NCBI GenBank assembly: GCA_964434115.1
Contig: CAYSSX010000001.1
Location: 18,197-82,196, forward strand
Source: an uncultured bacterium
Lineage (GTDB): Bacteria > Omnitrophota > Omnitrophia > Omnitrophales > Aquincolibacteriaceae
Length of the DNA stretch: 64,000 nucleotides
Direction: 5' to 3'
Shown here: positions 11,007-61,661 of the stretch, piece by piece
How the letters are laid out: each line of letters begins with the position of its first letter
How positions within the stretch are numbered: the first letter of the stretch is position 1
Translations under genes and position numbers: made by a program
Notes under the pieces: generated by a model
Told to the model about the DNA's origin: nothing
What the model saw: only the letters and a program-made list of their open reading frames with translations
Database searches by the model: none

Positions 11007-11074
11007 CAAACCCTGCTGTTTCAGTCCCGGAAGTTTCATTGCTTTAACCCCCCTCATCGTTTAAGATACGCCCC

Positions 11075-16596: not shown

Positions 16597-16597
16597 T

Positions 16598-20067: not shown

Positions 20068-20073
20068 TGACTT

Positions 20074-36407: not shown

Positions 36408-36408
36408 T

Positions 36409-40678: not shown

Positions 40679-40734
40679 CAATCCCATTACCGAACAAATC
40701 CCATTCAATTTTAAGGAAGGAAGAAACAACTTTT

Positions 40735-43725: not shown

Positions 43726-45045
43726 ATGTCTAACACAACGGCGGTAACCCAAATGAGTCTTGATGAAAAGTTGAAAACCAAAACCCTTCGTGCGGGAATC
43801 ATTGGTCTTGGCTATGTCGGTCTTCCCTTGGCTGTGGAATTTGCCAAAGCGGGCATTGAGGTGGTCGGTATTGATGTGGACACACGGAAAGTGGAGGCTC
43901 TCAACAAGGGGGAGTCGTACATTCTGGATGTTCCGACCAAGGAAGTCGAAGAGCTCGTGAAAGCCAAGAAGCTTTCCGGGACCACCGATTTCAGCGTGAT
44001 CAAGACGCTGGATACCGTGAATATCTGCGTTCCGACGCCGCTCCGCAAATCCAAAGATCCGGACATGACCTATATCGTCGCCGCGACCGAACAGATTGCC
44101 AAGTATGTGCACGCCGGCATGCTGGTGATTCTTGAAAGCACCACTTACCCTGGAACCACCGAAGAGGTCATTCAGCCCATGCTTGAAGCCAAAGGGCTTA
44201 AAGTGGGCAAAGATTTTTATCTCGCCTTTTCGCCGGAACGCGTGGATCCGGGCAATGCGAAATACGGAACCCGCAACATTCCGAAGGTTGTCGGGGGCGT
44301 CACGAAAGACTGCACCCGTCTTGCCGGCGATTTTTATGCCCTTGCCATTGACCACGTGCACCGCGTTTCGTCACCCAAAGCGGCGGAGATGGTCAAGCTG
44401 CTTGAAAATACCTTCCGCAGCGTGAATATCGGCCTGATCAACGAGCTTTGCCAGATGAGCGCAAAGCTTGGCGTGGATGTTTGGGAAATTGTGGACGCCG
44501 CGGCAACGAAGCCTTTTGGTTTTATGCCGTTCTATCCCGGCCCCGGACTCGGCGGCCACTGCATTCCGATTGATCCGCATTATCTGGCCTGGACTGCGCG
44601 CAGCCACGGTTTCGCGCCGCGTTTCATTGAACTTGCCAGCGAAATTAACGCCCAGATGCCGGAATTTGTCGTGCGCAAGGCCCAGGAAATCCTGAACCAG
44701 CGGGGCAAGGCTGTGAAGGGCGCCAAGGTCCACCTTCTCGGAGTCACGTACAAGAAAAACGTTACGGATTGCCGCGAGACGCCGGCTGTGGAAGTGGTGG
44801 AGCTTTTGGAAAAAATGGGTGCCGTGGTCTCCTACTCGGACCCGTACGCTCCGGTTTTCCCGGTTCATCACACCACCTACAAATCCGTGGACGCGAAGGA
44901 AGCTTCGCTTAAATCCGATATTGCAATTCTTTTGACGGACCACGACAAATTTGACCGCAAGGCTTTAGCGGAACAGTTTCCCGTGATTTTGGACACTCGC
45001 AATGCTTTTAAAGGAATTCATTCTGAAAGGATCATCCAGCTTTAG
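43726..45045 (+). CDS. Nucleotide-sugar dehydrogenase (UDP-N-acetyl-D-glucosamine/mannosamine 6-dehydrogenase family, WbpA/TviB/WecC-like)
   Basis: It has an N-terminal NAD-binding motif (GIIGLGYVGLPLA) and the central and C-terminal UDPG_MGDP_dh domains. Confidence 0.85.
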   Translation: MSNTTAVTQMSLDEKLKTKTLRAGIIGLGYVGLPLAVEFAKAGIEVVGIDVDTRKVEALNKGESYILDVPTKEVEELVKAKKLSGTTDFSVIKTLDTVNICVPTPLRKSKDPDMTYIVAATEQIAKYVHAGMLVILESTTYPGTTEEVIQPMLEAKGLKVGKDFYLAFSPERVDPGNAKYGTRNIPKVVGGVTKDCTRLAGDFYALAIDHVHRVSSPKAAEMVKLLENTFRSVNIGLINELCQMSAKLGVDVWEIVDAAATKPFGFMPFYPGPGLGGHCIPIDPHYLAWTARSHGFAPRFIELASEINAQMPEFVVRKAQEILNQRGKAVKGAKVHLLGVTYKKNVTDCRETPAVEVVELLEKMGAVVSYSDPYAPVFPVHHTTYKSVDAKEASLKSDIAILLTDHDKFDRKALAEQFPVILDTRNAFKGIHSERIIQL

Positions 45046-45060
45046 GATGAGACAGGTGGC

Positions 45061-45918
45061 TTGATGAAAACCGCAGACGTGAAGACAAGTTCCATTTCCG
45101 AATACCTTTTGAAAAGCGGGGCCGTGACGCTTCTTTTCACCGCGGCCGGTCTCATTGCCTGCGCGCAGGCCCTGACGTTTCTTTTTGCCGGAGCGGATTT
45201 TTCTTCCGCGCTTGAGAATCTCCGGATGAAAAACGCGGTGTCCCAGTGGTTTACAAGTATTGTGTTTTCACTGTCTGCGTTTCTGGCCTGGGGAATCTCG
45301 AACGCCGCGGTCAACCGGGCAGACAAGAGAACCTGGCAGGGAACCGCCCTTTTTCTCGCGCTGCTTTCCGCCTGCGAAGTGGTTTCTCTTCGTGAATTTT
45401 TCGGCTGGTCGTACTTCCTGACTTCGACTGTCTCAACGCTGTCGGCGTGGTGGGGAGCGCTTGCCGTGATTTCCGTATTAAGTCTGTGGGGCGGTTACGG
45501 TCTGTACAAGGCCCTGACGGATTCTCCGAGAGCTGTTCAAACGCTGATTTTTGGAACGCTTCTTTACACGGCCGGCGCGCTCGGCGATGCTTTTGTGATC
45601 GTGATGGCCGCGGCCCGGCCTGAAGCCGGTATTTTCTGGCCTTTCCAGCTTGTGATGAACGGGGCTTTCAAAATGCTTGGAACCTCGGTTTTTCTGGCCG
45701 GCCTTATGCTTCATGAGGAATATTTGCACACGCAGATCCGCCGTGTTTTGAGCGGGCGCCACCCCGGCGGTCTTCCGGCCATTAAGTCAGAATCCGCCTC
45801 CTGGGCGCTTCGCATGATCGGCACCCCGACGCGTGATGAGATTTTGATGCAGGAAGAAACGGTGCGCGCCGCACAGCGCAGCCGCGATGAAAAACAGGGG
45901 ATAAAGGCAGGCGAATAA
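45061..45918 (+). CDS. Hypothetical polytopic membrane protein
   Basis: It has about 7 predicted TM helices and no recognisable motif. Confidence 0.5.
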   Translation: MMKTADVKTSSISEYLLKSGAVTLLFTAAGLIACAQALTFLFAGADFSSALENLRMKNAVSQWFTSIVFSLSAFLAWGISNAAVNRADKRTWQGTALFLALLSACEVVSLREFFGWSYFLTSTVSTLSAWWGALAVISVLSLWGGYGLYKALTDSPRAVQTLIFGTLLYTAGALGDAFVIVMAAARPEAGIFWPFQLVMNGAFKMLGTSVFLAGLMLHEEYLHTQIRRVLSGRHPGGLPAIKSESASWALRMIGTPTRDEILMQEETVRAAQRSRDEKQGIKAGE

Positions 45919-45919
45919 G

Positions 45920-46561
45920 ATGTCGCTGCCTGTCCTTCATTCTTTTGCCGGCTACGGCGTCCGCCGGCTGGCCTGCAAAGAAAAACTTCCCGAAAAGACA
46001 GCCTTGCTGCTGACGGTTTATTTTGTTTTTCTTGCGAACCTTCCTGATTTAGATTTCCTTCCCGGTGTCTTAACCGGAAGCGCTGCGGCTTTTCACCGCG
46101 GTTTCAGCCACAGTTTTGCGGCCGCGGTTCTATGCGCTTTGGCCGGTGCTTACGCCTGGAAAGTTTGGGGCAAGCGGCCTTTCCGGGGAATGTTCTTTGC
46201 TTCTTTTTTGTCCTATGCCTCACACCTTGTCCTTGACCTTCTTGGCAAGGCGCCGAAAGGCCTTGAACTGTTCTGGCCCTTTCTGTCACGCCGCGTTTAC
46301 GGTCCGCTGACGGATTTCTCGATTGACCTGAGCACGCACCCTCTTGAACGGGCCTCGGATTTCGGCAGTTTTTTTTCAGCGCTTACCGAGCGTTCCCTCC
46401 TGGAAGCTTTTTTCTTTGAAATGAGCGTGGTTTTTCTGGCCTGGTGTTTTTGGACTATTTTCAAGCCCGCGGAAGCGGAGCGGCGGGCGCACGCGGAAGT
46501 GGTTTTTTTGCGCGGAGCCTTGACCGCGATGTGCATGACGGTCTGTATTCTTTTGAAATAG
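45920..46561 (+). CDS. Membrane-bound metal-dependent hydrolase family protein (YdjM/DUF457-like)
   Basis: TM helices are interspersed with His-containing motifs (FHRGFSHSF, SHLVLDLLG). Confidence 0.55.
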   Translation: MSLPVLHSFAGYGVRRLACKEKLPEKTALLLTVYFVFLANLPDLDFLPGVLTGSAAAFHRGFSHSFAAAVLCALAGAYAWKVWGKRPFRGMFFASFLSYASHLVLDLLGKAPKGLELFWPFLSRRVYGPLTDFSIDLSTHPLERASDFGSFFSALTERSLLEAFFFEMSVVFLAWCFWTIFKPAEAERRAHAEVVFLRGALTAMCMTVCILLK

Positions 46562-46642: not shown

Positions 46643-47614
46643 ATGATTTGCCGGATTTGCGGGACGGCGGACGAACATAAGACTTATACGGTCCAGGAAA
46701 TGATGTTCGGGACCCGGGAAAAGTTCACCTATTTTCAATGTCTTTTCTGCGGGTGCCTGCAAATTTCCGAGTACCCCTCGGACATGGCCGCTTATTACCC
46801 GAAGGATTACTATTCTTATTCGCAGCGTTTGCCCGCGGTGCGGGCTTTAAAAAGCGGCATCCAGGATTTTTTGCGAAGAAAGAGAAACGAATCCCGTATC
46901 CGGGGAAAAGGGCTTTTGGGAAAGCTGCTGCTTCGGTGGAAACCCTTTGATGAGATTCCCGAAGAATGGATTTTAAAACTGAAGCTTCCCTTTGACGCCG
47001 CGATTCTTGATGTGGGCTGCGGAAACGGGGTGAGGCTGCTGAGTCTTAACCAGTTGGGTTATCAAAATCTGGCCGGAGTGGACCCCTTTATTCCGGAGAC
47101 GTGCCGGTATCCGAACGGAGTGGTGGTTCACAAAAAAGAGCTGGGTCAAATGGAAGGTCAGTTTGACCTGATCATGTTTCACCATTCCTTTGAGCACATG
47201 CAGAACCAGCTTGCTATTCTCAAACAGGCCTGCGCCCTTCTTAAGAAAAACGGGGTCTGCCTGGTGCGTATTCCAACGGCAAGCAGTTACGCGTGGGAAC
47301 ATTATGGCGTCCATTGGGTGAGTCTGGATGCGCCGCGGCACTATTACCTGCATTCCCATGAAAGCATCAGGTTTCTTTCATCGGAAGCCGGTTTTTCTTT
47401 GACGGAAATCAGTTCAGATTCCACAGACTTTCAGTTTTACGGAAGCGAGCAGTATCTGAAAAATATTCCGCTGGCAGCTCCGGAGTCTTATTGGGTGCAT
47501 CCGGAAAAATCTATTTTCACGGCCGGGGAAGTTGACGCGTTTAAAAGACGGGCCTGGCGCCTCAATGCTTTGGGAAGAGGCGATACGATTCAAGTTTTTA
47601 TGCGGAAAGAGTGA
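46643..47614 (+). CDS. Class I SAM-dependent methyltransferase with an N-terminal CxxC...CxxC zinc ribbon
   Basis: It has CRICG...CLFCGC and SAM motif I (LDVGCGNGVRL). Confidence 0.75.
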   Translation: MICRICGTADEHKTYTVQEMMFGTREKFTYFQCLFCGCLQISEYPSDMAAYYPKDYYSYSQRLPAVRALKSGIQDFLRRKRNESRIRGKGLLGKLLLRWKPFDEIPEEWILKLKLPFDAAILDVGCGNGVRLLSLNQLGYQNLAGVDPFIPETCRYPNGVVVHKKELGQMEGQFDLIMFHHSFEHMQNQLAILKQACALLKKNGVCLVRIPTASSYAWEHYGVHWVSLDAPRHYYLHSHESIRFLSSEAGFSLTEISSDSTDFQFYGSEQYLKNIPLAAPESYWVHPEKSIFTAGEVDAFKRRAWRLNALGRGDTIQVFMRKE

Positions 47615-47663: not shown

Positions 47664-48671
47664 ATGAATAAAATCATACCGGTGTTGACATTGATTGATG
47701 TAGAGCCTGATCTCCGCCTTGTGGATCCGGGTCATCGAGCCCCTTGGGAAGGGTATGAGAAGACCCATGAGTTTTTTTCCGCCCTTCGTGCCGAGCTCAC
47801 GGAGCGTACCGGCCGTGAAGTTCATTACGCCTGGTTTTACCGCATGGATCCGCAAATTGAAGAAGCTTACGGTTCCGCGGAATGGATTGTTGAAAATTAT
47901 CCGCAGGTCACGGAAGAAATCCTCTGGCAGGGAGATGATGCGGGGCTCCATACGCACGCCTGGCGCTGGAACCCGAAGACCCGGAGCTGGTTTACGGACC
48001 ACGCGGATCAAGCCTGGGTCGATCATTGCCTGCGCTTGTCCTTTGAGTCTTTCCGCAAGGCCTTTGGCAGGAATTGCGAAATCTTCCGTTTCGGCGACCG
48101 CTGGATGAATCAAAAAACCTTTGAGCTCGCGGAAAAACTCGGGGCGGTTTGCGACCTGACCCTTGAGCCGGGGCAGCCTGAGACAACGGGCATGATTCCC
48201 GGGGAAAAGGTCACAGGGCATTACCCCGACTACACCCATGTCCCTCACGCTGTTTACCGGCCTTCGCGCGGGGATTTTTTGAAGCCTGGGCTCTTTGACG
48301 CCGAGGGGGGGCTGAGAGTGATGCCTTTGAGCACCGGCTTTGTTTCCTACCAGTTTGGACGTCTGGAACGTCTTTACAGGAAGTTCGCCACCCCGCAAAT
48401 GCTCAAACCTTTTTGTGTGACCTTGAAGTGGGGCCTGCCGCCGGTACATTTCCGCGAGGTTCTTGAACAAGCCCTGAGCCACGATGAGCCCGGGTATGTG
48501 ACGCTTCTGGTCCGCTCCGATGAGGCCGGTGATCCGGTGAAGGCTGAGTGTATGGCGGAAAACCGTGAAATCCTTTTCGCCTTTGCCGAAAAGTACCCGT
48601 TTGTTTTTATGCATCCGACCGAAGCTCTTGCCGCACTCGACTCGCCCTTTTGTCAGGAGACAGTCCTGTGA
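47664..48671 (+). CDS. Hypothetical protein, possibly a divergent polysaccharide-modifying enzyme
   Basis: It is 335 aa and His/Asp-rich (GLHTHAWRW, DHADQAWVDH). It does not match a family I recognise. Confidence 0.4.
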   Translation: MNKIIPVLTLIDVEPDLRLVDPGHRAPWEGYEKTHEFFSALRAELTERTGREVHYAWFYRMDPQIEEAYGSAEWIVENYPQVTEEILWQGDDAGLHTHAWRWNPKTRSWFTDHADQAWVDHCLRLSFESFRKAFGRNCEIFRFGDRWMNQKTFELAEKLGAVCDLTLEPGQPETTGMIPGEKVTGHYPDYTHVPHAVYRPSRGDFLKPGLFDAEGGLRVMPLSTGFVSYQFGRLERLYRKFATPQMLKPFCVTLKWGLPPVHFREVLEQALSHDEPGYVTLLVRSDEAGDPVKAECMAENREILFAFAEKYPFVFMHPTEALAALDSPFCQETVL

Positions 48672-49318
48672 GCGTCCCTGGTTTTTTTAAGAAACCGTTT
48701 TTAAGCCTGCTGGACCGCTGGGGTGTCCGCGTGGAGACGCGCGCCCCGGAAATGCGCCGCCGTTTTAAACGCTTTGGCCGTTCCTGGATTCATGAACCTC
48801 TCGGCCTTTTTAAAAACCCCCAGTACATGAGCATTGGCAGCGGGGTTTGTATTGAAGCGAACGTGACGGTCGAGGCTGAAGATTATTACCCGTTGTCCAA
48901 CCAGCGCTTTTCTCCGGTTTTTGAAATCGGGGACGGAACCCACATCCGCAGCTACTCGAGCTTCTACTGTTCGAATTCCATTAAAATCGGAAAAAACGTT
49001 CTGATCGGGCGGTATGCGATGGTGACAGACCTCAGCCATTCTTACGACGATGTTGGTAAACCGGTCAATGCCCAGCCGATCACGGAAGGCGGGTGGGTGG
49101 TGATTGAAGACGAGTGCTTTATCGGGCACGGCGCCATGATTCTCCGCAATGTCAGGATTGGAAAACATGCCATTGTGGGGGCCGGTGCCGTGGTCACAAG
49201 GGACGTTCCGCCTTACACCGTGGTCGCGGGTAATCCCGCGGCCGTGCTTTGCCAATACGACGAAAATTCCCGGGAGTGGAAAAGACTCCACCGCGGTTCC
49301 GCAGCCGCAGTTTCTTAA
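48650..49318 (+). CDS. Hexapeptide-repeat (LbH) sugar O-acetyltransferase
   Basis: It has hexapeptide repeats (IGKNVLIGRYAMV..., IGHGAMILRNVRIGKHAIVGAGAVV) and a C-terminal VVAGNPAAV. Confidence 0.8.
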   Translation: MSGDSPVSVPGFFKKPFLSLLDRWGVRVETRAPEMRRRFKRFGRSWIHEPLGLFKNPQYMSIGSGVCIEANVTVEAEDYYPLSNQRFSPVFEIGDGTHIRSYSSFYCSNSIKIGKNVLIGRYAMVTDLSHSYDDVGKPVNAQPITEGGWVVIEDECFIGHGAMILRNVRIGKHAIVGAGAVVTRDVPPYTVVAGNPAAVLCQYDENSREWKRLHRGSAAAVS

Positions 49319-49329
49319 ACAGGAGATTT

Positions 49330-50802
49330 ATGACTTCGCTGAAACACAAAACCGTATCCGGATTTACCTGGCAGATTATCCTGCAAGTGACGACCAAGGC
49401 GATTTCGGTCGGAACCTTTGCCGTGCTCGCGCGCATTCTTCCGCCGTCTGCTTTCGGTTTGTTTGCCCTGGCCTTTGTGGCCATTGACGGGCTTTCCCTT
49501 TTCAAGACCTTTGGCATTGACGCCGGCCTGATTCAGCGCAAAGACGCCAACGACGCGGTCAAAAGCACGGCCTTTTTTATGGTTCAGATCTCCAGCGCCT
49601 CGGTGTTTCTTCTCTGTTTTATTTTGGCGCCGTTTGCGGGCGAGTTTTTCCATAACCCCGAGGCCGCTTCCGTGATTCGTGCCTTGGGCATTATTTTTGT
49701 GTGCAATGGCTTTGGAAAGATCCCTTCGGCGCTTCTCACCAAGGAAATGCGGTTCCGGCTGATTTCAATCATTCAGCTTGTGGGCGGCATCGTGAACTCC
49801 GTCTGCGCCATCAGCTTTGCTTTGATTTCTCCGAGCGTCTGGAGCCTGGTGCTCGCGTACCTGGCCAAAACCCTGGTGATGGACGGCCTCAGCTGGTATC
49901 ACTCCAAGTTCCGGCTCCGGTTTGTTTTTGACCGGAAGATCGCCAGTGAGTTTTTTAATTTCGGAAGCATTTTAATGATGGGCGGAATATTTACGTACCT
50001 GACCGAGAACCTCAACAACCTCGCTGTGGGCCGCCTGCTGGGCACCACTTTGGTGGGGTATATGGCGCTGGCCAACAATGTCGCCAGTTTTATCAACACC
50101 CATTTTACCTACCTGATTCTGCGCGTTCTTTTTCCCGCGTATGCCACGCTTCAGGATGACAAGTTTGAGCTCAAGCGCGTTTACCTGAAGATCCTGAAAT
50201 TCATCTCCATGTTTACCGTTCCGTTCTGTGTGGCGCTGATGGTGCTGGCCAAGGAACTTGTGCTGACCCTTTACGGGGAAAAATGGCTGATCATTGTGCC
50301 GATTGCCCAGGTTGCCGCCGCGATCCAGCTTTTTGCCTCGATTTTGAGCGGGGCGGGGCCGGTTTACCTGGCCTGCGGCCGTCCGAAATACGGCCTTCAC
50401 CTTGCCATTCTGGGGCTTGTGATCCGTATTCCGCTGGTGATCGTGATGACGAAATTGTGGGGGCTGATGGGGACCGTGCTTTCCGACCTTTTTGTGAATA
50501 TGATTCTCGCGCCGCTCAGTATTCTCATGGTCCGCCGCACAATCCCTTTTACCTGGGGGGAATTTTACAAAGCCCTGTCGCCTTCAATCCTGTGCACGGC
50601 CGTGATGGCGGGTTTTATCCTGATCTTTAAATTTTCCGTCCACCTCCCGTTCATGTCTTTTATGGCGAACCTTCCCTTTGTTCAGCTTTTGACGGCGACA
50701 GTGATCGGGTGCGCGGCTTACGGTGCAGCCGTGTTTGTTCTGGATCAGCCCGCGGTGCAGGAACTGAAGGGGCTTATCAAAAAGCCCGCGAAACTTGTTT
50801 GA
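49330..50802 (+). CDS. Wzx-type polysaccharide flippase (MOP superfamily)
   Basis: It has about 12-14 TM helices in a PST-family pattern. The start is adjusted to MTSLKHK; the ORF track starts at 49249. Confidence 0.85.
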   Translation: MTSLKHKTVSGFTWQIILQVTTKAISVGTFAVLARILPPSAFGLFALAFVAIDGLSLFKTFGIDAGLIQRKDANDAVKSTAFFMVQISSASVFLLCFILAPFAGEFFHNPEAASVIRALGIIFVCNGFGKIPSALLTKEMRFRLISIIQLVGGIVNSVCAISFALISPSVWSLVLAYLAKTLVMDGLSWYHSKFRLRFVFDRKIASEFFNFGSILMMGGIFTYLTENLNNLAVGRLLGTTLVGYMALANNVASFINTHFTYLILRVLFPAYATLQDDKFELKRVYLKILKFISMFTVPFCVALMVLAKELVLTLYGEKWLIIVPIAQVAAAIQLFASILSGAGPVYLACGRPKYGLHLAILGLVIRIPLVIVMTKLWGLMGTVLSDLFVNMILAPLSILMVRRTIPFTWGEFYKALSPSILCTAVMAGFILIFKFSVHLPFMSFMANLPFVQLLTATVIGCAAYGAAVFVLDQPAVQELKGLIKKPAKLV

Positions 50803-50858: not shown

Positions 50859-51626
50859 ATGGAGTTAATTAAAGAAAAAGCTGTCGAAGCCTATCAGAAA
50901 ATCTGGCTGGGGACGATGGACGGTATTTATGATCACCACCAATACCGCAACATCGTTCTGCATGAACAGAAGGCGGTTTATTATTTTATTCCCAAAGTGG
51001 CGTGCTCGACTTTGAAGAAAGTGTTTGCCAAGGCCCTGGGAATTTACGAAGAAGGCCGGGATGTTCAGTACCTCAACTACCCGACGATGCCGCATTGGAA
51101 GCTGAAGCGCCACCGGGATTACTTTAAGTTCTGCTTTGTCCGCAACCCGTGGGACCGGCTTGTTTCGGCGTATTCCAATAAAATCTCCCAAGACCCCGGA
51201 CAAAATGACGCTGTTTTTGAAAACGGTGTTCCCCGGATCTGGAAAAAATTCGGTGTTTTTTATCCAGGGATGGATTTCGCTTCATTTGCCGCGGCGGTGG
51301 CCCGGATTCCTGATTCCGAGGCCGAAGCGCACTTCCGGTCGCAGTCGGCATTTTTCAAAAATGCCTCTGGGGATATCCCGATGGATTTTGTCGGACGCTT
51401 TGAAAATCTGGACGAGGATTTCCGTCTACTGTGTCAAAAAATCGGTCTCGAAGAGGCCGGGCTTGAACACAGGAACCGTTCGCGGCGGAAGGCCTATCAG
51501 AGTTACTACGATGACAAAACGCGGCGCCTGGTTGAGGAACGTTATCAGGAAGACATCCGCCGTTTCGGGTATTCTTTTGGAAATGTGCAGCCCGTTTTTG
51601 GACGCCTTGGCAAGGTTCTCCAGTAA
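50859..51626 (+). CDS. Carbohydrate sulfotransferase (Sulfotransfer_2 family)
   Basis: It has a 5'-PSB-like motif (IPKVACSTLKKVF) and a 3'-PB-like motif (VRNPWDRLVSAY) characteristic of PAPS-dependent sulfotransferases. Confidence 0.8.
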   Translation: MELIKEKAVEAYQKIWLGTMDGIYDHHQYRNIVLHEQKAVYYFIPKVACSTLKKVFAKALGIYEEGRDVQYLNYPTMPHWKLKRHRDYFKFCFVRNPWDRLVSAYSNKISQDPGQNDAVFENGVPRIWKKFGVFYPGMDFASFAAAVARIPDSEAEAHFRSQSAFFKNASGDIPMDFVGRFENLDEDFRLLCQKIGLEEAGLEHRNRSRRKAYQSYYDDKTRRLVEERYQEDIRRFGYSFGNVQPVFGRLGKVLQ

Positions 51627-51644: not shown

Positions 51645-52643
51645 GTGTTTTTTATGAGAGTCAGTGTTGTGATTCCGACCTACAACCGCCCGCAGTTCGT
51701 GGAGCGGGCGGTAAAGAGCGTGCTTGGACAGACTTTTTCGGATTATGAGATTCTCGTGGTCCAGAACGGGCCTCAGGATGTTTCCCGCTCCGTAAGCGAA
51801 AGTTTTATGAAAGCCGGGGCTCCTGTCCGGCACATTTACAGCCCGAAACCCTGCGCGGTCAGCGCCCGTAACCTGGGAGCGAGCGAGGCCCAGGGGGATT
51901 TGATCGCTTTTCTGGACGATGACGATGAATGGTTCCCCGAAAAGCTGGAAAAGCAGGTGCTTTTTTTGGACGAGCATCCGGACATGGCTTTGGCCGCGTG
52001 CCGGGTGCAGATTGAGGATGCTCGCGGGCTTGTCCTTCAAAAGGAAAACACTCCTTTTTACGGCGAAGTGACCTTTCGCAAACTCTTGACCCAGGGCTGT
52101 GTGATCCACTCGTTTTCGTCCGTTGTGATCCGAAGGGAAGCGTTTCATCGCGCCGGAGGCCTGAACGCGGCTTACCGCAGCTCCAATGATTATGATTTTT
52201 ATTTCCGGCTGGCCATGACGGACCGCCTGTGGCTTATGCCCGGTGTCCTCGTGCATTATCATTTTCACGAGGGCAGTCTGACCCAGGACCTGGTGATGAA
52301 ATTTGACGAAAATATGGCGGTTCTGCGCTCGCTTGAAAAATGTCCGGTTGAGAAATACGGCGTGGGGCGGAAGCTGCTCAGAATGCTTACGATTAAACGT
52401 TCCCTGATGTATTGCAACCGCGGGTTGGATGAGTATGAGGCCGGGCGTTTTGCCGCTGCGGGACATTTCTTGTCAGCCGCCCTTAAACGCGATCCTTGCG
52501 TGGGAACTAAAATCCGCTGGGGCAAAAGAAACCCGTTCTGGAAGCGCTGGATTCGCCCGTACGCGTATTTGGCCTTATCTTTTCTGAAGAGTTTCCGCCG
52601 CGATCTGTTACTGCCGAAAGGGACTTCGCATGCCTCTGCCTGA
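51645..52643 (+). CDS. Glycosyltransferase family 2
   Basis: It has the motifs VVIPTYNR and FLDDDDEW (DxD). Confidence 0.85.
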   Translation: MFFMRVSVVIPTYNRPQFVERAVKSVLGQTFSDYEILVVQNGPQDVSRSVSESFMKAGAPVRHIYSPKPCAVSARNLGASEAQGDLIAFLDDDDEWFPEKLEKQVLFLDEHPDMALAACRVQIEDARGLVLQKENTPFYGEVTFRKLLTQGCVIHSFSSVVIRREAFHRAGGLNAAYRSSNDYDFYFRLAMTDRLWLMPGVLVHYHFHEGSLTQDLVMKFDENMAVLRSLEKCPVEKYGVGRKLLRMLTIKRSLMYCNRGLDEYEAGRFAAAGHFLSAALKRDPCVGTKIRWGKRNPFWKRWIRPYAYLALSFLKSFRRDLLLPKGTSHASA

Positions 52644-53940
52644 CCGTGGAAAACTCAGGATCGGTTACTTTCTCTACGGCAAGGGCCTGGGCGGCAACGG
52701 GCGCTATGTGGAAAGCCTGCTGGAGCGGCTGGATACCCGGAAGCACGAGGTCACCGTCTATCTTTATTGCCCGGAAGGGGAAGACCGTGAAAAATTTGTG
52801 AAACTCGCGGAGTCTCTGAATGTCCGTATTTGTCCTTTTAATTCCGAGGGGCTTCCCGCGGTTGAAACGCGGGAACCTAAAACCGCTCCTCAGACCGGGC
52901 ACGCTGCGGCTTCTTCCGGCGCTAAACCCGGCAAAGAGACTTTGCAGGAAAGTTTCCGCATCTGGATTTATTACCTGAAGGCGGTCTGGAAGCTCCGGAA
53001 TTTTTTCCGTGCGGAGAAACTGGATGTCCTGCATTTGAGCCTTGGGACTTTTCCCACTCTGCTTCACGTCGTCAACGGGGCCTTGCTTTCCGGAACACGC
53101 GCGGTGCCCATGATCATTCATATTCTTGAAATTCAGCGCGACCCCCGGGCCATTGACCGTTTTCTGATGAACCGCGTGATCCGGGCGCGCAATCCGGTGA
53201 TTGCGCTTTCCAACACCATGAAAAAAGAACTGCTCTCGCGCTTTGGTTTTCAGTCCAGCCGTGTTTCTCCGGTTTATAACGGGGTGGATCCCGATGCCTA
53301 CGGCTACGGCCGCGTGCCTTCCTTGAACAAGCAGGCGCTTGGCCTTCAAAGCTCTGAAAAGGCCGTGCTGGTGCCTGCCCGCTTTCACCCGGTGAAAGGG
53401 CATGACGTTCTTTTCAAAGCCATTGCCCAAAACCGTGAAGCCCTGAGAAACCACGTGTTCCTGCTTGCCGGCGAAGGTCCGCTTGAGGACGCGCTCAAAC
53501 AGCAGGCCCGGGATCTTGGGATTTCGGACAGGGTCCGCTTCATCGGCTTCCGTAACGACATTCCTTCGCTTCTGACGCTTTGCGATTTCACCGTGCTTCC
53601 TTCCTATAATGAAGGTTTTCCTTTTGTGCTTCTGGAATCCATGGCCACCGGAAAGCCTGTGATTGGAACTGATGTCGGGGCCGTATGCGAGATGATCTAC
53701 GAAGGCAAAAACGGTTTTATGGTCAAGGCCGGTGATGTGGACGGCCTGTCCAAGGCTTTGCTTCACATGGTTTCCGCCCCTGAGGACGAGAGGCTGGAAA
53801 TGGGGGCTTGGGGCGCGGGGCTTATCCGCGACCGCTTCTCACTGCAGCTGATGATTGAGAATACGTTTGCCCATTACAGCGTGCCGGTCTCCGAATTATT
53901 GCGCAAGCAAGAGCCTGCTTTAACGGGAGTGAAGTCCTGA
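52630..53940 (+). CDS. Glycosyltransferase family 4 (GT-B)
   Basis: It has the C-terminal motif EGFPFVLLESMATGKPVIGTDVGA. Confidence 0.85.
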   Translation: MPLPDRGKLRIGYFLYGKGLGGNGRYVESLLERLDTRKHEVTVYLYCPEGEDREKFVKLAESLNVRICPFNSEGLPAVETREPKTAPQTGHAAASSGAKPGKETLQESFRIWIYYLKAVWKLRNFFRAEKLDVLHLSLGTFPTLLHVVNGALLSGTRAVPMIIHILEIQRDPRAIDRFLMNRVIRARNPVIALSNTMKKELLSRFGFQSSRVSPVYNGVDPDAYGYGRVPSLNKQALGLQSSEKAVLVPARFHPVKGHDVLFKAIAQNREALRNHVFLLAGEGPLEDALKQQARDLGISDRVRFIGFRNDIPSLLTLCDFTVLPSYNEGFPFVLLESMATGKPVIGTDVGAVCEMIYEGKNGFMVKAGDVDGLSKALLHMVSAPEDERLEMGAWGAGLIRDRFSLQLMIENTFAHYSVPVSELLRKQEPALTGVKS

Positions 53941-54905
53941 TGTTCAGTCTTATTCTTTGCACTTACAACCGCGCGGAAAGCCTTGCCGAGACCCTGCAGT
54001 CTATTAACACCCAGGTTGTGCCGCAGGACTTCCGCGGCGAGATTCTTGTGGTGGACAACAATTCCAAAGACCGGACGCGCCAGGCGGTCGAGGTTTTCGC
54101 GGGCATGAGCCAATGGCCGGTCCGCTATATTTTTGAAAGCAAGCAGGGTTTGTCGCACGCCCGCAACGCGGGGATTGAGGCCGCGCGGGGGGACGTGATC
54201 GGTTTTCTCGATGACGATGTGATTGTGGAACCGGGCTGGCTGGCGGCTATGGATGCTTTATTCCGGGAAACGGATGCCGCGATGGCGGGCGGAAAAATTC
54301 TCCGCCGCTGGGACTGCAAGCCCCCGGATTGGTATACGGAAGAAATCGGAGGGCCGTTGATCGGCCAGGATTACGGACCGAAGCGGAAAAAGGATTTTCA
54401 AAAAGGGCAGTACCTTATCGGCGCGAGCATGGCTTTCCGGAAATCGATTTTTGAAAAGACCGGACTATTCAGCGTGGAGCTGGGCCGCAAGGGGAATTCC
54501 CTGATCGGCGGCGAAGACAAAGACATTTTTGAGCGCGTGAGCGCGGCGGGCGGCGTTATTTATTATGAACCCGCGGCCGTGATTCAGCACCGGGTGGAGC
54601 AGGAGCGCCTGACCAAAGAATATATGCGCCGGTGGTTTTACGCGATCGGCCAGACAGCCGGGCATCAGATGGAGCGGAAAACCTCCGCGGTTCTGACCGG
54701 CGCGCCGCTTTGGGTCTGGGGTGACTTTGCCGCGGCCCTTCTGCGATATCTCCGGGTTCGTGTTTTCTTCCGCAGCCCGGACTCTGAAAAATTTGCCAGT
54801 GAAGTCTCCCTCCGCTATAACGCAGGCGTTCTGAGGGAATGTTTGATCCATTGGATTCCGTATTCGGGGATCCAAAATTTATGCGTGTTCCGGGAGAAAA
54901 AATGA
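53940..54905 (+). CDS. Glycosyltransferase family 2
   Basis: It has the motifs LILCTYNRAESL and FLDDDV. It is paralogous to the gene at 55856. Confidence 0.85.
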   Translation: MFSLILCTYNRAESLAETLQSINTQVVPQDFRGEILVVDNNSKDRTRQAVEVFAGMSQWPVRYIFESKQGLSHARNAGIEAARGDVIGFLDDDVIVEPGWLAAMDALFRETDAAMAGGKILRRWDCKPPDWYTEEIGGPLIGQDYGPKRKKDFQKGQYLIGASMAFRKSIFEKTGLFSVELGRKGNSLIGGEDKDIFERVSAAGGVIYYEPAAVIQHRVEQERLTKEYMRRWFYAIGQTAGHQMERKTSAVLTGAPLWVWGDFAAALLRYLRVRVFFRSPDSEKFASEVSLRYNAGVLRECLIHWIPYSGIQNLCVFREKK

Positions 54906-55855
54906 AAATCCCCCTTGTGACGGTTGTGATCCCGACTTACAACCGCCGTCATTTAATTGAAGAGGCGCTGGACAGTGTTTTTGCCCAGACCTTTACCGAC
55001 TACGAAGTGGTGCTTGTGGACGACGGTTCTACGGACGGCACGGAGGCACTCGTCAAAAAAAAATACGGCACGCGCCTCAGGTATGTCCGGCAGGAAAACC
55101 AGGGGATTTCCGGCGCCCGCAACACGGGGATCGCCAATGCCTCCGGAAAATACGTGGCGTTTCTCGATTCTGACGACAAATGGCTGCCTGAGAAACTCGC
55201 GCGGCAGGTTGCCTTTATGGAAGCGCACCCGGAAACCGGACTTCTTTCCACCAAGCTGGCGCGGTATGAACTGGGCGGAGACAAAGAGAAAGTGGAAATC
55301 TGTCCCGTGGATTTCCCAAGGAATTTCCAGGACTTGCTGACCGGCAAAAATAATGTTCCGACCACCACGACCCTGGTGCGCCGTGAATGCTTTGAAAAGG
55401 CGGGTCTTTTTGACCGTGAACTTCCGGTGGCTGAAGACTGGGATTTGTGGCTGCGCATTGCCGAGCATTACGGTTTGGCTTGTCTGGATGAAATTCTTGC
55501 CGAGCACCGGGACCATTCGCAGAAAACCACTCAGAACCTTGCAAAAACCTACGAAGGCTATTGGCGGTTTTATGCCAAGACCGCTGAACTGTATGCGGAC
55601 AAGATCCCCAACCTCGCTGAAGTCCGGCGCCGCGGCCAGTCCTTCCGCTACCTTCTGGGGATTCACCTGATGCGCGGCGGGCATTACGGGGCGAGTTTGT
55701 CACACCTTTGCGCAGTGCTGGCCGCGGACCCCGCGGTGGGCCTTTACTTTGCCCAGGGGGAAGCGAGTCCGTTCAAAAAAACCGTTTCTGTCATGAAACC
55801 TTACGGGGCCTGTCTTGCGGCTCTGGTGATGCCCCTTTGGAAAAGGAGTTCCTGA
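54902..55855 (+). CDS. Glycosyltransferase family 2
   Basis: It has the motifs VVIPTYNRRHLI and FLDSDD. Its ATGA start overlaps the upstream stop. Confidence 0.85.
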   Translation: MKIPLVTVVIPTYNRRHLIEEALDSVFAQTFTDYEVVLVDDGSTDGTEALVKKKYGTRLRYVRQENQGISGARNTGIANASGKYVAFLDSDDKWLPEKLARQVAFMEAHPETGLLSTKLARYELGGDKEKVEICPVDFPRNFQDLLTGKNNVPTTTTLVRRECFEKAGLFDRELPVAEDWDLWLRIAEHYGLACLDEILAEHRDHSQKTTQNLAKTYEGYWRFYAKTAELYADKIPNLAEVRRRGQSFRYLLGIHLMRGGHYGASLSHLCAVLAADPAVGLYFAQGEASPFKKTVSVMKPYGACLAALVMPLWKRSS

Positions 55856-56776
55856 ATGATCAGTGTCATTATCTGCACCTACAACCGGGCGGAAAGCCTC
55901 AAAGAAACTTTGGATGCGCTTGCAAAGTTAACCGCGCCGTCACCCGGTTTTGAAGTGATTGTGGTGAACAACAACAGCAGCGACGCAACACCGGAAGTGG
56001 TGAAGGCCGCGGCCGAGGGGGCTTCGTTTCCCGTCAAGTATGTGTTTGAACCCAAGCAGGGATTGTCTCATGCGCGTAACTCGGGCATTGAAGAAGCCCG
56101 CGGCGAATTTCTGGTTTTTACGGACGATGACATTATTCCCGAAAAACAGTGGCTTTCTTCCATCCGCGACGGTTTTATGCTGTTTGAAGCGGATGTTGTG
56201 AGCGGGCCTTTGCAGGCTTTATGGTTTGCTCAGCCCCCGGCCTGGTATCAGAACCCCGGGGTTCGCAAGTCTTTGAGCGGGCTTCTGGGGGAACTTGATT
56301 TAGGACCCCGCCCGCTGATTGCTGAAAGCCTTGAGCACGGGTTTATGTTTGGGGCCAATATGGCGTTCCGGAAGAGCTTTTTTTCTGACGTGGGTGTTTT
56401 CCGGACCGATCTCGGGGTTTCCGGAAAAAAACACGGACTCGGTGAAGACACGGAAATTCTTGAAAGAGGTTTCCGGGCCGGCAAGAAATTTGTTTATATT
56501 CCCGGGGCGAAGGTTGGGCATAAAGTCCGTCCTGAAATGCTGACGCCGGCGTACATCCGGCACTGGAAGTACCAAAAGGGTCTTTCCGTGACCCGCAGCT
56601 CTGTAAAGCCCTTTCGATTTCCTCCGTTCTGGCTGTTGAAGGAATGCGCGGGGCACGCGTTTTCGAGTCTCGTATGGCGCTTCCGGGGCCGCGTATCCGA
56701 AGCACTAAACCGAGAGCTGTCCTTCTGGATTCAGGCCGGGCAGATCAGCGGTTATTTTCAGAATGAATTTAAGTGA
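55856..56776 (+). CDS. Glycosyltransferase family 2
   Basis: It has the motifs VIICTYNRAESL, KQGLSHARNSGIEEARGE and FTDDD. Confidence 0.85.
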   Translation: MISVIICTYNRAESLKETLDALAKLTAPSPGFEVIVVNNNSSDATPEVVKAAAEGASFPVKYVFEPKQGLSHARNSGIEEARGEFLVFTDDDIIPEKQWLSSIRDGFMLFEADVVSGPLQALWFAQPPAWYQNPGVRKSLSGLLGELDLGPRPLIAESLEHGFMFGANMAFRKSFFSDVGVFRTDLGVSGKKHGLGEDTEILERGFRAGKKFVYIPGAKVGHKVRPEMLTPAYIRHWKYQKGLSVTRSSVKPFRFPPFWLLKECAGHAFSSLVWRFRGRVSEALNRELSFWIQAGQISGYFQNEFK

Positions 56777-56789
56777 GACTGCGGAACCC

Positions 56790-57782
56790 ATGAAACCTGC
56801 CCCTGATGTAACGCTGATTATTGCGACGTGGAACCGGGTGAACGATCTCCGCGAAACCCTGCGGCAGGTTTCCCTCCAGGACACCAAGGGCACTTTCACG
56901 TTTCAAGTGATTGTGGCGGACAACAATTCCTCGGATGATACACGTTTGGCTGTTGAAAGCTTTCAGCCGGCCTACCCGGTACCGCTTCACTATGTGTTTG
57001 AAAAAAAACAGGGGAAATCGTTTGCCCTGAATACGGCGCTTCGAAGCACACCCTCTCCTTATATTGCTTTCACGGATGATGATTGTTTTATGGGGCCGGA
57101 TTGGCTGCTGGGAATCTGGCGGACGTTTCAGGAGTTTGACGCGGATGGCGTCGGAGGACCGGTTTACGCGGTGTGGAAAGGGGAACGGCCGGATTGGTTC
57201 GGTGACGATCTCGCGCGGCAAGTGGGCACGGTCGATCACGGGGACAAGGCGCATGTGCTGACCACGCATTTGGAATCTTTCATCGGGCCCAACTGCGCGT
57301 ACCGCCGGAAAGTCTTTGAAAAAATCGGAGGCTATGACACCGAGCGCCTTGGGAACTCTGAAGACGTGGATCTTTTTATCAGGGCCTTTAAAGCCGGCTT
57401 CAAGCTGGTGTATCAGCCCGCGGTCCGGGTGGGCAACAAAATCGAGTTTTCTCCGGACATGAGAAAGACCCTTAAAAAGCGGTTTTGGAGACAGGGGCGG
57501 GCGATCGCTTACGGGGTTCAGGAAGAAGGCCCGAAAAAACGCACGCTTTGCCGGGTTCCGCTGTGGATGGTCCGGTACGTGATTGAGCTGCACTTTGAGG
57601 CGCTCGCCGCCAGGCTCCGCGGAGACCGCGTAAAAGCCGCCTGGCATTGGCTGCGCCGCTATTTTTATCTGGGCGCCATTTATTACTGTTTTGAAGACTG
57701 GCGGCTTAACCGTGTCACGGATCACGGGAGGCCTGAAATTCCGGTGTATCAAGCAAAGCCTCAAAGCGGAGTGCGCGCATGA
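56790..57782 (+). CDS. Glycosyltransferase family 2
   Basis: It has the motifs LIIATWNRVNDL and FTDDD. The start is adjusted to MKPAPD. Confidence 0.8.
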   Translation: MKPAPDVTLIIATWNRVNDLRETLRQVSLQDTKGTFTFQVIVADNNSSDDTRLAVESFQPAYPVPLHYVFEKKQGKSFALNTALRSTPSPYIAFTDDDCFMGPDWLLGIWRTFQEFDADGVGGPVYAVWKGERPDWFGDDLARQVGTVDHGDKAHVLTTHLESFIGPNCAYRRKVFEKIGGYDTERLGNSEDVDLFIRAFKAGFKLVYQPAVRVGNKIEFSPDMRKTLKKRFWRQGRAIAYGVQEEGPKKRTLCRVPLWMVRYVIELHFEALAARLRGDRVKAAWHWLRRYFYLGAIYYCFEDWRLNRVTDHGRPEIPVYQAKPQSGVRA

Positions 57783-58909
57783 AGCCGCTCCGCATCGGTC
57801 TGGATGCCCGGCCGCTTTACTCGCCGGCCATGAAAGGGATTGGGGTTTATCTTCAGAACCTTTTGAATGAAATGCTCCGTCTTGAGCCTTCCGCGGAATT
57901 CTTTCTTTATTATGATTCACGCCAGAAAACCTTGAACCGCAAGCCGGACTCCGCGAAAGTCACGGAACGCCCGGTTCAAATCGGCACCGGCGACCGGTTT
58001 TACTTCTGGGAGCAATGGGCCTTTCCGCGCGCGCTGGAACGCGACCGGATTTCACTCCTTCATTCTCCCGCGAACACGCTTCCCCTGGGTTTTAAGGGGC
58101 CGAAGGTGGTCACGGTCCACGACACGACCATTCAGGAGCGCGAGGACAAAACCCGCATCGACATGTTTTATTACAATTTTTTTCAGCCCTTTGCGGTCAG
58201 GCGCGCGGACCGCGTGCTGACGGTCTCCGAATTTTCCAAAACCAACATTGAAAAAAGACTTGGCGTGCGTGAAAGCAAAATCCGCGTGATTCCTAACGGC
58301 ATCAGCCCCGCGTTCCGGCTTTTGGCGGATGAGAAAATGGTGGAAGAGGTCAAGGCCCGTTTGGGCATCCGGGGCCGTTACATTTTTAACGCGGGCGGCG
58401 AGAGTCCCTGGAAGAATGTGGCGCGTCTTATTGAGGCCTACAGCGCGCTGGATTGCCCGGAAGAATTGGTGATTACCGGGGTGCGCAGTGAAAAGGTCCG
58501 CGCCGGGCATCTTGAAAAGATAAAAGAGCTGGGTTTGAAAGACCGTGTCCACCTGCTCACCTATGTTTCGGAGCAGGATTTGATCGCGCTTTACAACGGT
58601 GCCTCGGTTTTTATTTACCCGTCCCTGCTTGAGGGGTTCGGGTTTCCTCCGCTTGAGGCCATGGCCTGCGGGGTTCCTGTCGCGGCTTCAAACGCGGCCT
58701 CTATTCCGGAAGTCACGGGCGCCGCGGCTTTGTCGTTTGATGGAAACCGCACCGCGGACATCGCGGGCGCTCTTCGGCGTTTACTGACCGATGAAGAACT
58801 CCGGGCCGATCTCCGGAAACGCGGGTTTGAACGGGTGCGGCGTTTTACCTGGGAGCAGAACGCGCGCGAGACCCTGAAAGTTTACCGGGAAGTTTTGAAT
58901 GCCCAATAA
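57779..58909 (+). CDS. Glycosyltransferase family 4
   Basis: It has the motif EGFGFPPLEAMACGVPV. Confidence 0.85.
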   Translation: MKPLRIGLDARPLYSPAMKGIGVYLQNLLNEMLRLEPSAEFFLYYDSRQKTLNRKPDSAKVTERPVQIGTGDRFYFWEQWAFPRALERDRISLLHSPANTLPLGFKGPKVVTVHDTTIQEREDKTRIDMFYYNFFQPFAVRRADRVLTVSEFSKTNIEKRLGVRESKIRVIPNGISPAFRLLADEKMVEEVKARLGIRGRYIFNAGGESPWKNVARLIEAYSALDCPEELVITGVRSEKVRAGHLEKIKELGLKDRVHLLTYVSEQDLIALYNGASVFIYPSLLEGFGFPPLEAMACGVPVAASNAASIPEVTGAAALSFDGNRTADIAGALRRLLTDEELRADLRKRGFERVRRFTWEQNARETLKVYREVLNAQ

Positions 58910-60080
58910 TTTCACGCAGGTTTTGATCGCGGAGTCGGGGAGCGGGTATGGCGGCACGGCCAAATACCTTGCAGACCTGCTGCCCGTGCTCAAGGAAAAA
59001 GGGATTTCGGCGCGGGTGTTGTCTTACGGGATGGGGCCCTTTTTGAAACGCCTGAAAGACAGCGGCTGGCCTTTTGAATACAAACCGGAATGGAAGTTTC
59101 CAGCGGGCGGGGAAAAGACGGAGCGCTGGGGGTTGCCCGGGCTTTTGATTGCGGGCGGGTTTCAGATGCTGACCCAGGTGCCTGGGATTACGCGCTGGCT
59201 AAGGGAAAATGAAATCGGCCTGGTGCATTTGAATAATGAAATCCTGACTCACCTTCCGCTTCTCTATGCGGCCAAACGGGCGGGGTGCCGGGTGGTCTGC
59301 CATTTGCACGGCTGGCGGGAAATGACCCGCCTTGAACGCCTCGCGGTGAAGCACGTGGACACCTTTGTCTGTATCTCGCATACCGGCGCGGATTATTTTT
59401 CGAAACAGCTGGGCCGCGGCGTGGTGCCTGCTCCGAATGGCATTGTGATCGGCCCTGAATACCAGGCTCTGCCGGCCAAACGCCGGGGGGTACGGGAAAA
59501 GTGGAAAATAGCCGAAAATGAGATTCTGGTCAGCCTTATCGGCCGGGTGATTTCCTGGAAGGGGCAGGATGTTTTTCTGAAGGCCCTTTCGCTCGCGTCA
59601 CGTGAGGCCCCGGGCTTGCGCGGATTGATTTTAGGCAAGGACACATCCCCGGGCGAAAAAGAATGGAAACGCCTTCAGGAACTGGCCCGCGAACTTGGGG
59701 TTCATGAGCGTGTGGTTTTTCTGCCGTGGCTGGAGGACGTGGCTTCGGCCTACGCGGCTTCTGACATTGTGGTGCATGCCTCAGTGAAGCCGGAGCCTTT
59801 TGGCCTGGTGATCCTTGAGGCCATGGCCGCGGGACGGCCCGTGATTGCAACGCGTGCCGGCGGCGTGGTGGATATTGTGGAGGACGGGGTGTCGGGTCTT
59901 TTGATCGAGCCTGGAAGCGCGGAAGCCCTGGCCGGGGCCCTTCTGAAAATCGTCCGCGATCCTGAGTTTGCTGCCCGGATTTCCGCGGCCGGTGAAGCCC
60001 GGGTGCGTGAAGTTTTTACCATGGAAAAAAACGCGGCGATTATCGCGGGTGTTTACGAACAACTTTTGTCCCGGAATTAA
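58899..60080 (+). CDS. Glycosyltransferase family 4
   Basis: It has the motif EPFGLVILEAMAAGRPVIATRAGG. Confidence 0.85.
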   Translation: MPNNFTQVLIAESGSGYGGTAKYLADLLPVLKEKGISARVLSYGMGPFLKRLKDSGWPFEYKPEWKFPAGGEKTERWGLPGLLIAGGFQMLTQVPGITRWLRENEIGLVHLNNEILTHLPLLYAAKRAGCRVVCHLHGWREMTRLERLAVKHVDTFVCISHTGADYFSKQLGRGVVPAPNGIVIGPEYQALPAKRRGVREKWKIAENEILVSLIGRVISWKGQDVFLKALSLASREAPGLRGLILGKDTSPGEKEWKRLQELARELGVHERVVFLPWLEDVASAYAASDIVVHASVKPEPFGLVILEAMAAGRPVIATRAGGVVDIVEDGVSGLLIEPGSAEALAGALLKIVRDPEFAARISAAGEARVREVFTMEKNAAIIAGVYEQLLSRN

Positions 60081-60095
60081 AGAAGGGGATTTGCT

Positions 60096-61658: not shown

Positions 61659-61661
61659 CGC

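Follow-up and report, generated by a model that had tools for sequence, protein, structure and literature searches.

A Sulfotransfer_2 gene in a Wzx/Wzy-type polysaccharide cluster of an Omnitrophota bacterium, a probable case of surface-polysaccharide sulfation

Does a member of the uncultured phylum Omnitrophota decorate the polysaccharide at its surface with sulfate? The question is raised by an open reading frame (ORF), 50859-51626, in the 64-kb window analysed here, by which is meant the whole stretch of DNA (64,000 nucleotides of contig CAYSSX010000001.1, assembly GCA_964434115.1). ArgS, also encoded in the window, places the source in this phylum: its nearest named relatives, 61-65% identical, belong to metagenome-assembled genomes of Candidatus Omnitrophota/Omnitrophica. 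An original prediction, made from the sequence alone, had read this ORF as a carbohydrate sulfotransferase using 3'-phosphoadenosine 5'-phosphosulfate (PAPS) and embedded in an exopolysaccharide (EPS) cluster. Computational follow-up leads to the view that, with a sulfotransferase gene inside a surface-polysaccharide cluster, this bacterium is probably surrounded by a capsule or slime that carries sulfate. The reading that we consider likely is that a soluble, cytoplasmic, PAPS-using Sulfotransfer_2 enzyme, co-transcribed with a Wzx/Wzy cluster, sulfates the lipid-linked repeat unit and so gives rise to a sulfated capsule or EPS.

The family assignment is the firmest part of this answer. With the Sulfotransfer_2 profile (PF03567), whose gathering cutoff is 22 bits, the product of the ORF scores 94.1 bits (E = 2e-26), and its residues 32-239 align to positions 4-252 of a profile of 252, so that the family threshold, the check that the original prediction had proposed, is passed far beyond chance. 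No NCBIfam model matched the sulfotransferase. The identical protein is encoded on a Logan contig, where genes had been called independently, and the boundaries there agree. Both nucleotide-binding signatures claimed at the outset, IPKVACST and RNPWDRLVSAY, were found, the first as a 5'-phosphosulfate-binding (PSB) loop and the second as a 3'-phosphate-binding (PB) motif that fits PxxRxxS (P97-W-D-R100-L-V-S103). The family is defined by a conserved PSB-loop lysine and the PxxRxxS 3'-phosphate motif (2024 review, PMC11625862), and the residues in question (K46; P97, R100 and S103) are intact in the window ORF. In an alignment of 50 sulfotransferase homologs with 35-58% identity, K46, A48, R95, N96, P97, W98, D152, H158 and Q162 are invariant (50/50), and P45, V47, C49, D99, R100, S103 and Y105 are conserved in at least 90%. 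The invariant histidine H158 is a candidate catalytic base, suggested by this conservation pattern.

Structure prediction points the same way. The AlphaFold2 model is confident (pLDDT 89.8, pTM 0.85), and in a Foldseek search of the PDB all of the top 50 matches were PAPS-dependent sulfotransferases (SULTs, plant SOTs, HS6ST, HS3ST and NDST). The modelled protein thus appears to have the sulfotransferase alpha/beta fold class with its PAPS-binding core, without a close solved structure. A Shine-Dalgarno sequence (AAGAGGA) lies 7 nt upstream of the start codon. No hydrophobic segment was found in the protein (maximum 19-residue Kyte-Doolittle mean 1.04), nor a signal peptide, and its G+C content at third codon positions (0.57) is slightly lower than the 0.62-0.68 of its neighbours and equal to that of the adjacent methyltransferase gene. 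The enzyme is predicted to be native, soluble and cytoplasmic because of its good ribosome-binding site, its lack of a hydrophobic segment and its neighbour-like composition. Recent horizontal acquisition of the gene was considered and rejected, the composition being only slightly below that of the neighbours and not distinctive.

The second part of the answer comes from the genes around the sulfotransferase (Table 1). The cluster starts at 36340, has all its genes on the + strand with short gaps between them, and continues past the window end at 64 kb. It holds a set for the Wzx/Wzy-dependent pathway, namely Wzx, Wzy, a polysaccharide co-polymerase (PCP) with a bacterial tyrosine kinase (BY-kinase), and an outer-membrane polysaccharide export (OPX) protein. 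The predicted location between the flippase gene and the glycosyltransferase array was borne out: Wzx lies directly upstream (56 nt gap) and a GT2 gene directly downstream (18-27 nt gap), the start positions of Wzx and the first GT2 being taken from a gene call on a Logan contig (L001). A promoter and terminator scan gave nothing convincing between wzx, the sulfotransferase gene and the GT2 gene, and nothing that would separate the sulfotransferase from its neighbours; Rfam detected no RNA families in the window. A priming phosphoglycosyl transferase of the WbaP or WecA type (Bac_transf, Glycos_transf_4) was not found among the scanned ORFs of the window, beyond which the cluster continues; the priming gene may lie past the window end.

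Several genes for sugar precursors and decorations had been named in the original prediction. The glmS and methyltransferase genes are indeed present, whereas three further labels held only at the level of the family. The UDP-HexNAc dehydrogenase does belong to the dehydrogenase family, but its substrate label reflects a best match only: the protein passes just the generic TIGR03026 (434 bits), and the best specific models, UDP-ManNAc dehydrogenase (278/260 bits) and the UDP-GlcNAc dehydrogenase TviB (242 bits), stay below their cutoffs. The 4-epimerase is an NAD-dependent epimerase whose more precise name comes from a best match to TviC (UDP-HexNAcA 4-epimerase) that is far below cutoff (231 bits vs 760; GalE, 190 vs 262). 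The O-acetyltransferase is a generic hexapeptide acyltransferase, which could be O- or N-specific; its best NCBIfam matches (WbbJ and NeuD/PglB/VioB) are all under their cutoffs. NCBIfam thus refines the dehydrogenase, epimerase and acyltransferase labels without fixing substrates.

Whether the association of this sulfotransferase with glycan genes is accidental can be judged from its relatives. The exact protein is on record in one NCBI contig of 517,562 bp and one Logan contig, the organism also being present in SRA run SRR16481187, and the next relative is 57% identical. That relative, from a related organism (loci L082 and L091), shares the module, with orthologs 48-91% identical and local changes of order only: dehydrogenase, membrane protein, YdjM, CE4-like protein, an unknown gene, acyltransferase, sulfotransferase, Wzx, methyltransferase and GT2/GT4. 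Its dehydrogenase is 91% identical, its membrane protein 48% (in L082), and its sulfotransferase-flanking genes 64-91%. That the relative carries the same module marks the sulfotransferase as a lasting part of clusters of this type. Within this module, the membrane protein at 45061-45918, for which no Pfam, NCBIfam or PDB match was found, and the YdjM protein at 45920-46561 are co-conserved with the dehydrogenase, deacetylase-like protein, acyltransferase, sulfotransferase and Wzx.

At a greater distance, the protein collection yielded 1,245 matches with E <= 1e-3, and at least 557 relatives were confirmed among species-representative genomes, the best match to a GTDB representative being 46% identical. 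They span Planctomycetota, Gammaproteobacteria, Acidobacteriota, Cyanobacteria, Rhizobia, Roseobacters, Verrucomicrobiota, Chloroflexota and others, including another Omnitrophota metagenome-assembled genome; several homologs bear the JGI label 'chondroitin 4-sulfotransferase 11'. The description of sulfated bacterial EPS as rare was thus overstated at the level of genes, and it is also countered by published sulfated polysaccharides with cluster-borne sulfotransferases (PMC8205485, PMC11641403, PMC7356697). A 46% identical relative sits mid-cluster among GT2, GT4, epimerase and methyltransferase genes, and replicon-borne homologs of Gloeothece PCC 7822 and Sinorhizobium meliloti are likewise found among polysaccharide genes. 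A census of the 149 genes directly beside homologs, taken over 80 genomes, was headed by GT2 (13), Sulfotransfer_3 (10), Sulfotransfer_1 (8), GT4 (6), Sulfotransfer_4 (3) and methyltransferases, with flanking genes mostly miscellaneous and spread over 138 Pfam families.

The use of PAPS by the family is best supported, indirectly, by the enrichment of adenosine 5'-phosphosulfate (APS) kinase genes near the homologs. A Pfam-verified APS kinase lies within 10 kb of the sulfotransferase homolog in 5 of the 80 loci, whereas chance would give about 0.2-0.65 loci if each genome had a single kinase gene, and no more than 1.3 if a 2-Mb genome had two. Two of these five kinases are Sat-CysC fusions, one of them directly downstream of the sulfotransferase homolog. 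The fusions (PUA_2, ATP-sulfurylase and APS kinase domains) occur in two Chloroflexota genomes, at 10806-12530 of locus L049, where the fusion directly follows the sulfotransferase gene, and at 12744-14474 of L060, and both loci form self-contained sulfation modules.

How the enzyme would act follows from where its donor is found. Because PAPS is confined to the cytoplasm and the enzyme lacks an export signal, sulfation before flipping is most likely. The sulfotransferase would O-sulfate one sugar of an undecaprenyl-diphosphate-linked repeat unit at the inner membrane face, during its assembly by about ten glycosyltransferases, and neighbouring enzymes would methylate, acylate and possibly de-N-acetylate the same unit. 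Wzx would then flip the decorated unit, Wzy would polymerize it, and the PCP, BY-kinase and OPX (Wza) proteins would export the polymer, giving a sulfated capsule or exopolysaccharide that contains uronic acids and amino sugars. The same scheme has been proposed for synechan (PMC8205485). The labels 'highly anionic' and 'heparin-like' that had been given to the product are speculation.

An active PAPS-dependent sulfotransferase might instead serve another envelope glycoconjugate, such as an O-antigen-like lipopolysaccharide (LPS), a tightly bound capsule or a PEP-CTERM protein glycan; this is considered unlikely, though several details of the locus lend it some weight. The Wzy_C family (PF04932) also covers O-antigen ligases, and the known rhizobial cases are sulfated LPS and capsule (PMC11625862), with the S. 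meliloti homolog adjoining KpsF and an ABC exporter. The best NCBIfam matches of the OPX, PCP and ATPase proteins are XrtA/PEP-CTERM models, all below the equivalog cutoffs (TIGR03027, 101 vs 180; TIGR03007, 272.8 vs 278.85; TIGR03015, 310.1 vs 324.5 bits), as is the BY-kinase with the XrtA-type TIGR03018 (134.8 vs 230.65), and the locus is not assigned to the XrtA/PEP-CTERM EPS loci on these scores. Unlike the O-antigen route, a Wza-type OPX and a PCP with a separate BY-kinase make up the classic capsule/EPS export set, and no exosortase, PEP-CTERM protein, EpsI-type amidotransferase or FemAB was seen among the scanned ORFs of the window. Capsule and EPS themselves are inseparable from sequence alone.

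Other results weigh against a sulfating enzyme acting on a polysaccharide and have to be set beside the evidence above. Individually, the Foldseek matches of the sulfotransferase are weak (best E = 0.011, TM-scores 0.3-0.4). Searches of the PDB by sequence, with phmmer for the protein and hmmsearch for the 50-sequence profile, gave nothing meaningful, the sole matches being chance ones to FIH at E >= 0.045. No biochemically characterised bacterial PF03567 enzyme was found in the searchable literature, which is why donor and acceptor are extrapolated from the animal enzymes. Some family members occur in non-glycan contexts, on a phage-like contig or with a polyketide synthase (PKS) neighbour. 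Lastly, the genes for PAPS supply (sat, cysD/N, cysC and cysQ) were not found in the window, whose Pfam scan for them covered the larger + strand ORFs of at least 150 aa; a tblastn search with a single CysC probe and a scan for P-loop motifs were both negative too. A Vibrio study regards PAPS-synthesis genes in or near the locus as the hallmark of clusters for sulfated polysaccharides (PMC11641403), and this hallmark was not seen within the 64 kb.

These last results would suit a sulfotransferase that is non-functional here, through lack of PAPS or lost activity, and a polymer that is unsulfated, the more so as Omnitrophota are often reduced and partner-dependent and a literature search on PAPS and sulfate assimilation in the phylum gave nothing usable and no evidence of PAPS synthesis. 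Their weight is small because sulfate-activation genes usually lie elsewhere in bacterial genomes, 75 of the 80 homolog loci also being without any within 10 kb. All family-invariant residues are intact in a full-length ORF with a good ribosome-binding site, and the retention of the ortholog at 57% identity between flanks of 64-91% argues for purifying selection and a working enzyme, so that loss of function is quite improbable. If anything a shade less credible is a glycolipid, small molecule or protein as acceptor, to which the PKS and Sulfotransfer_1/3 setting of one homolog (L093), the phage-like contig of another (L084), the miscellaneous flanking genes and the bacterial Nod-factor and mycobacterial glycolipid sulfotransferases (PMC11625862) would point, against tight co-directional packing between wzx and GT2, a position kept in the relative despite changes of order, and closest homologs (46-57% identical) that likewise lie inside glycosyltransferase clusters.

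If the preferred reading, sulfation of a lipid-linked repeat unit, is retained, the kind of sulfation can be asked about, and here a gene overlooked in the original prediction becomes relevant. The ORF at 47664-48671, 2.2 kb upstream of the sulfotransferase gene and kept alongside it in the relative, encodes a protein of 335 aa without a signal peptide and without a Pfam or NCBIfam match. At least 487 homologs exist, all annotated as hypothetical and all without a Pfam domain. Its AlphaFold2 model (pLDDT 92.8) had 41 Foldseek matches in the PDB at E <= 1e-3 to deacetylases of the carbohydrate esterase family 4 (CE4) or NodB type, led by a mycobacterial polysaccharide deacetylase (3rxz, 2.7e-8) and Salmonella ArnD (4.2e-8) and including HP0310, PuuE, PdaC and a chitin deacetylase. 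D12, E14, H96 and H98 are invariant in the family and fit an Asp-His-His metal site. Members occur in Wzx- and ABC-type glycan clusters, some without any sulfotransferase. Judged by the model, this looks like a polysaccharide-modification family outside the current profile libraries, and the predicted CE4-type deacetylase could expose free amines.

The most novel proposal would have such amines N-sulfated. In it, the conserved trio of CE4-fold deacetylase, acyltransferase and sulfotransferase would act on a HexNAc or HexNAc-uronic acid residue of the lipid-linked unit, at its amino group, by de-N-acetylation and then N-sulfation on some units. It is rated as very doubtful indeed because co-occurrence gives it no support: a coupling of deacetylase and sulfotransferase like that of N-deacetylase/N-sulfotransferase (NDST) was rejected after a CE4-like homolog was found in none of the 80 other sulfotransferase loci, the family also being present in sulfotransferase-free clusters. 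If true, the trio would be the bacterial counterpart of what NDST does in animals, divided between separate proteins and located in the cytoplasm, and the product a heparan-like, N-sulfated polymer in Omnitrophota, making this organism a producer of the kind of sulfated glycosaminoglycan-like material reported in anaerobic granules.

Comparison with known systems helps to place the locus. With the animal PF03567 enzymes (CHST/HNK-1ST, HS2ST and HS6ST), the window enzyme shares a full-length HMM match, the PSB lysine, PxxRxxS and the fold class. The animal Golgi CHST and HS2ST enzymes have a type-II membrane anchor and a lumenal catalytic domain, whereas the window enzyme is a soluble protein of 255 aa in which no such anchor was found. 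It has no sequence-level match to any solved structure, those of HS2ST and HS6ST included, and its structural matches are distant (TM 0.3-0.4).

Closest among characterised systems in architecture is the xss cluster for synechan on pSYSM of Synechocystis PCC 6803 (PMC8205485), a Wzx/Wzy cluster with 8-10 glycosyltransferases, a PCP and embedded sulfotransferase genes, as here. Synechan is a sulfated EPS shown as such experimentally (PMC8205485), and its cluster has been transplanted into another host (PMC13125312). The window enzyme is not an xss ortholog, however. The xss cluster has two sulfotransferases, XssA and XssE, of the Sulfotransfer_3 and Sulfotransfer_1 families (PF13469 and PF00685), and the window has one, of PF03567; tblastn gave no pSYSM match in a collection that includes pSYSM, and hhalign probabilities with XssA and XssE were 21.6% and 0.2%, with the alignment confined to the 3'-PB motif. 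The clusters differ further in that the OPX gene is inside the cluster here and that no XssQRS regulators were seen here. Genes of the PF03567 family have already been noted in cyanobacterial EPS clusters (Maeda et al., PMC8205485). Both loci carry genes related to exosortase systems, the xss cluster having a 'cyanoexosortase A system-associated protein' (pSYSM 22553-22993, L094) that parallels the XrtA-like export genes of the window; this hints that exosortase systems and sulfated EPS are perhaps more widely linked. The OPX/PCP/ATPase/kinase set of the window may be a divergent Omnitrophota version of the XrtA/PEP-CTERM system.

Sulfated capsules of Vibrio and Cobetia are further published cases. 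In the capsule clusters of the marine gammaproteobacterium Vibrio sp. KMM 8419 (PMC11641403), sulfotransferase genes also lie in the surface-polysaccharide locus, one of them beside wzx, but these clusters have their own second cysDN/cysC copies, in contrast to the window, and ABC-transporter export. The putative sulfated-glycosaminoglycan cluster of Pontiella sulfatireligans, an anaerobe related to the Planctomycetes-Verrucomicrobia-Chlamydiae (PVC) group, resembles the window in its GT2/GT4 genes, TuaB/Wzx-type flippase, methyltransferase and sulfotransferase (PMC7356697). It differs in that its sulfotransferases are of PF13469 and its polymer is reported to be mainly N-sulfated, with gene-to-product links unproven (PMC7356697). 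In Mesorhizobium loti, KpsS is a capsule sulfotransferase with experimental support, as cited in a review (Townsend & Keating 2008, in PMC11625862). A Mesorhizobium genome (L010) has a 40% identical homolog of the window enzyme, which is no more than a lead to KpsS as a possible member of PF03567.

Altogether, the locus plausibly adds one more case to a type of system that is already known, though seldom put to the test. If its polymer does carry sulfate, the range of sulfated surface polysaccharides would grow to include the Omnitrophota, whose tiny, possibly partner-dependent cells are widespread but uncultured, and a compact soluble PF03567 enzyme of 255 aa would join the few candidates for polysaccharide sulfotransferases in bacteria. 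For biotechnology it would be one more candidate part, with a predicted activity only. The results at the family level are of broader use than a single locus: the occurrence in at least 557 species, the glycosyltransferase and sulfotransferase neighbours and the APS kinase enrichment suggest that glycan sulfation is far commoner in bacteria than literature statements such as 'cyanobacteria only' or 'six genera' imply.

The family also reaches into other settings. A 45% identical homolog (L084, 10001-10663) lies on a 60-kb Logan contig (SRR33785027) amid dozens of small same-strand ORFs; this contig, which also encodes an N6/N4 DNA methylase, HU, RNase HII and a patatin, has the look of a phage genome. 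Jumbo phages also have annotated distant homologs, namely Stenotrophomonas phage DLP6, Ralstonia phage phiRSL1 and uncultured phages of 460-480 kb. The neighbours of a 42% identical homolog (L093, GCA_973804135.1; 8409-10738 and 17905-20738) include Sulfotransfer_1/3, PhyH, an aldo-keto reductase and a large CurL-like PKS. For part of the family, the acceptor may thus be a polyketide or lipid product and not a glycan.

Table 1. Coordinates of the sulfotransferase gene, its motifs, the surrounding polysaccharide cluster and other features of the 64-kb window
Feature	Position	Strand	Basis or remark
Sulfotransfer_2 (PF03567) family sulfotransferase	50859-51626	+	ATG start, 255 aa
PSB loop IPKVACST, residues 44-51	50988-51011	+	K46 = 50994-50996
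3'-PB motif RNPWDRLVSAY, residues 95-105	51141-51173	+
H158, invariant His in D152..H158-F-R-S-Q162 block	51330-51332	+	Conservation among 50 homologs
Wza-like OPX	36340-37428	+	Poly_export plus SLBB
Wzz/GNVR PCP (chain-length determinant)	37671-38885	+	Pfam
AAA_22 ATPase	38878-39720	+	Pfam
BY-kinase	39623-40678	+	Generic TIGR01007 passes, 153 vs cutoff 108 bits
NAD-dependent sugar epimerase	40642-41685	+	Pfam Epimerase, 217 bits
GlmS (glutamine--fructose-6-phosphate aminotransferase)	41758-43596	+	GATase_6/7 plus two SIS domains
NDP-sugar 6-dehydrogenase	43726-45045	+	Pfam UDPG_MGDP_dh N, central and C domains
Multi-pass membrane protein	45061-45918	+	Several hydrophobic segments
YdjM-family membrane protein	45920-46561	+	PF04307, 71.1 bits
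S-adenosylmethionine-dependent methyltransferase	46643-47614	+	Methyltransf_23, 81.6 bits
CE4/NodB-fold deacetylase-like protein (predicted), previously unannotated	47664-48671	+	AlphaFold2 plus Foldseek
Hexapeptide-repeat acyltransferase	48668-49318	+	Hexapep, 56 bits
Wzx (MOP-family) flippase	49330-50802	+	Polysacc_synt_3, 249.6 bits; NF007773, 238.5 bits
Glycosyltransferase array, five GT2 plus five GT4	51654-63964	+	Pfam
Wzy_C-family polymerase within the glycosyltransferase array	60096-61658	+	Wzy_C, 71.6 bits
Fused transaldolase/phosphoglucose isomerase, 945 aa	5510-8347	+	TAL_FSA plus PGI domains
Stand-alone MshEN-domain ORF, 157 aa	within 16123-21297	+	Precedes the tandem ATPases
Two tandem MshEN-domain T2SSE/PilB-type ATPases, 601 and 603 aa	within 16123-21297	+
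T2SSF platform protein, PilM, then secretin	secretin 24900-26513		Follow the MshEN-domain ATPases

The first 36 kb of the window hold housekeeping genes and a cluster resembling those for type IV pili and type II secretion systems. MshEN domains are receptors of cyclic di-GMP, and because of the MshEN-domain proteins in this cluster the pilus or secretion system of the window may be under cyclic di-GMP control.

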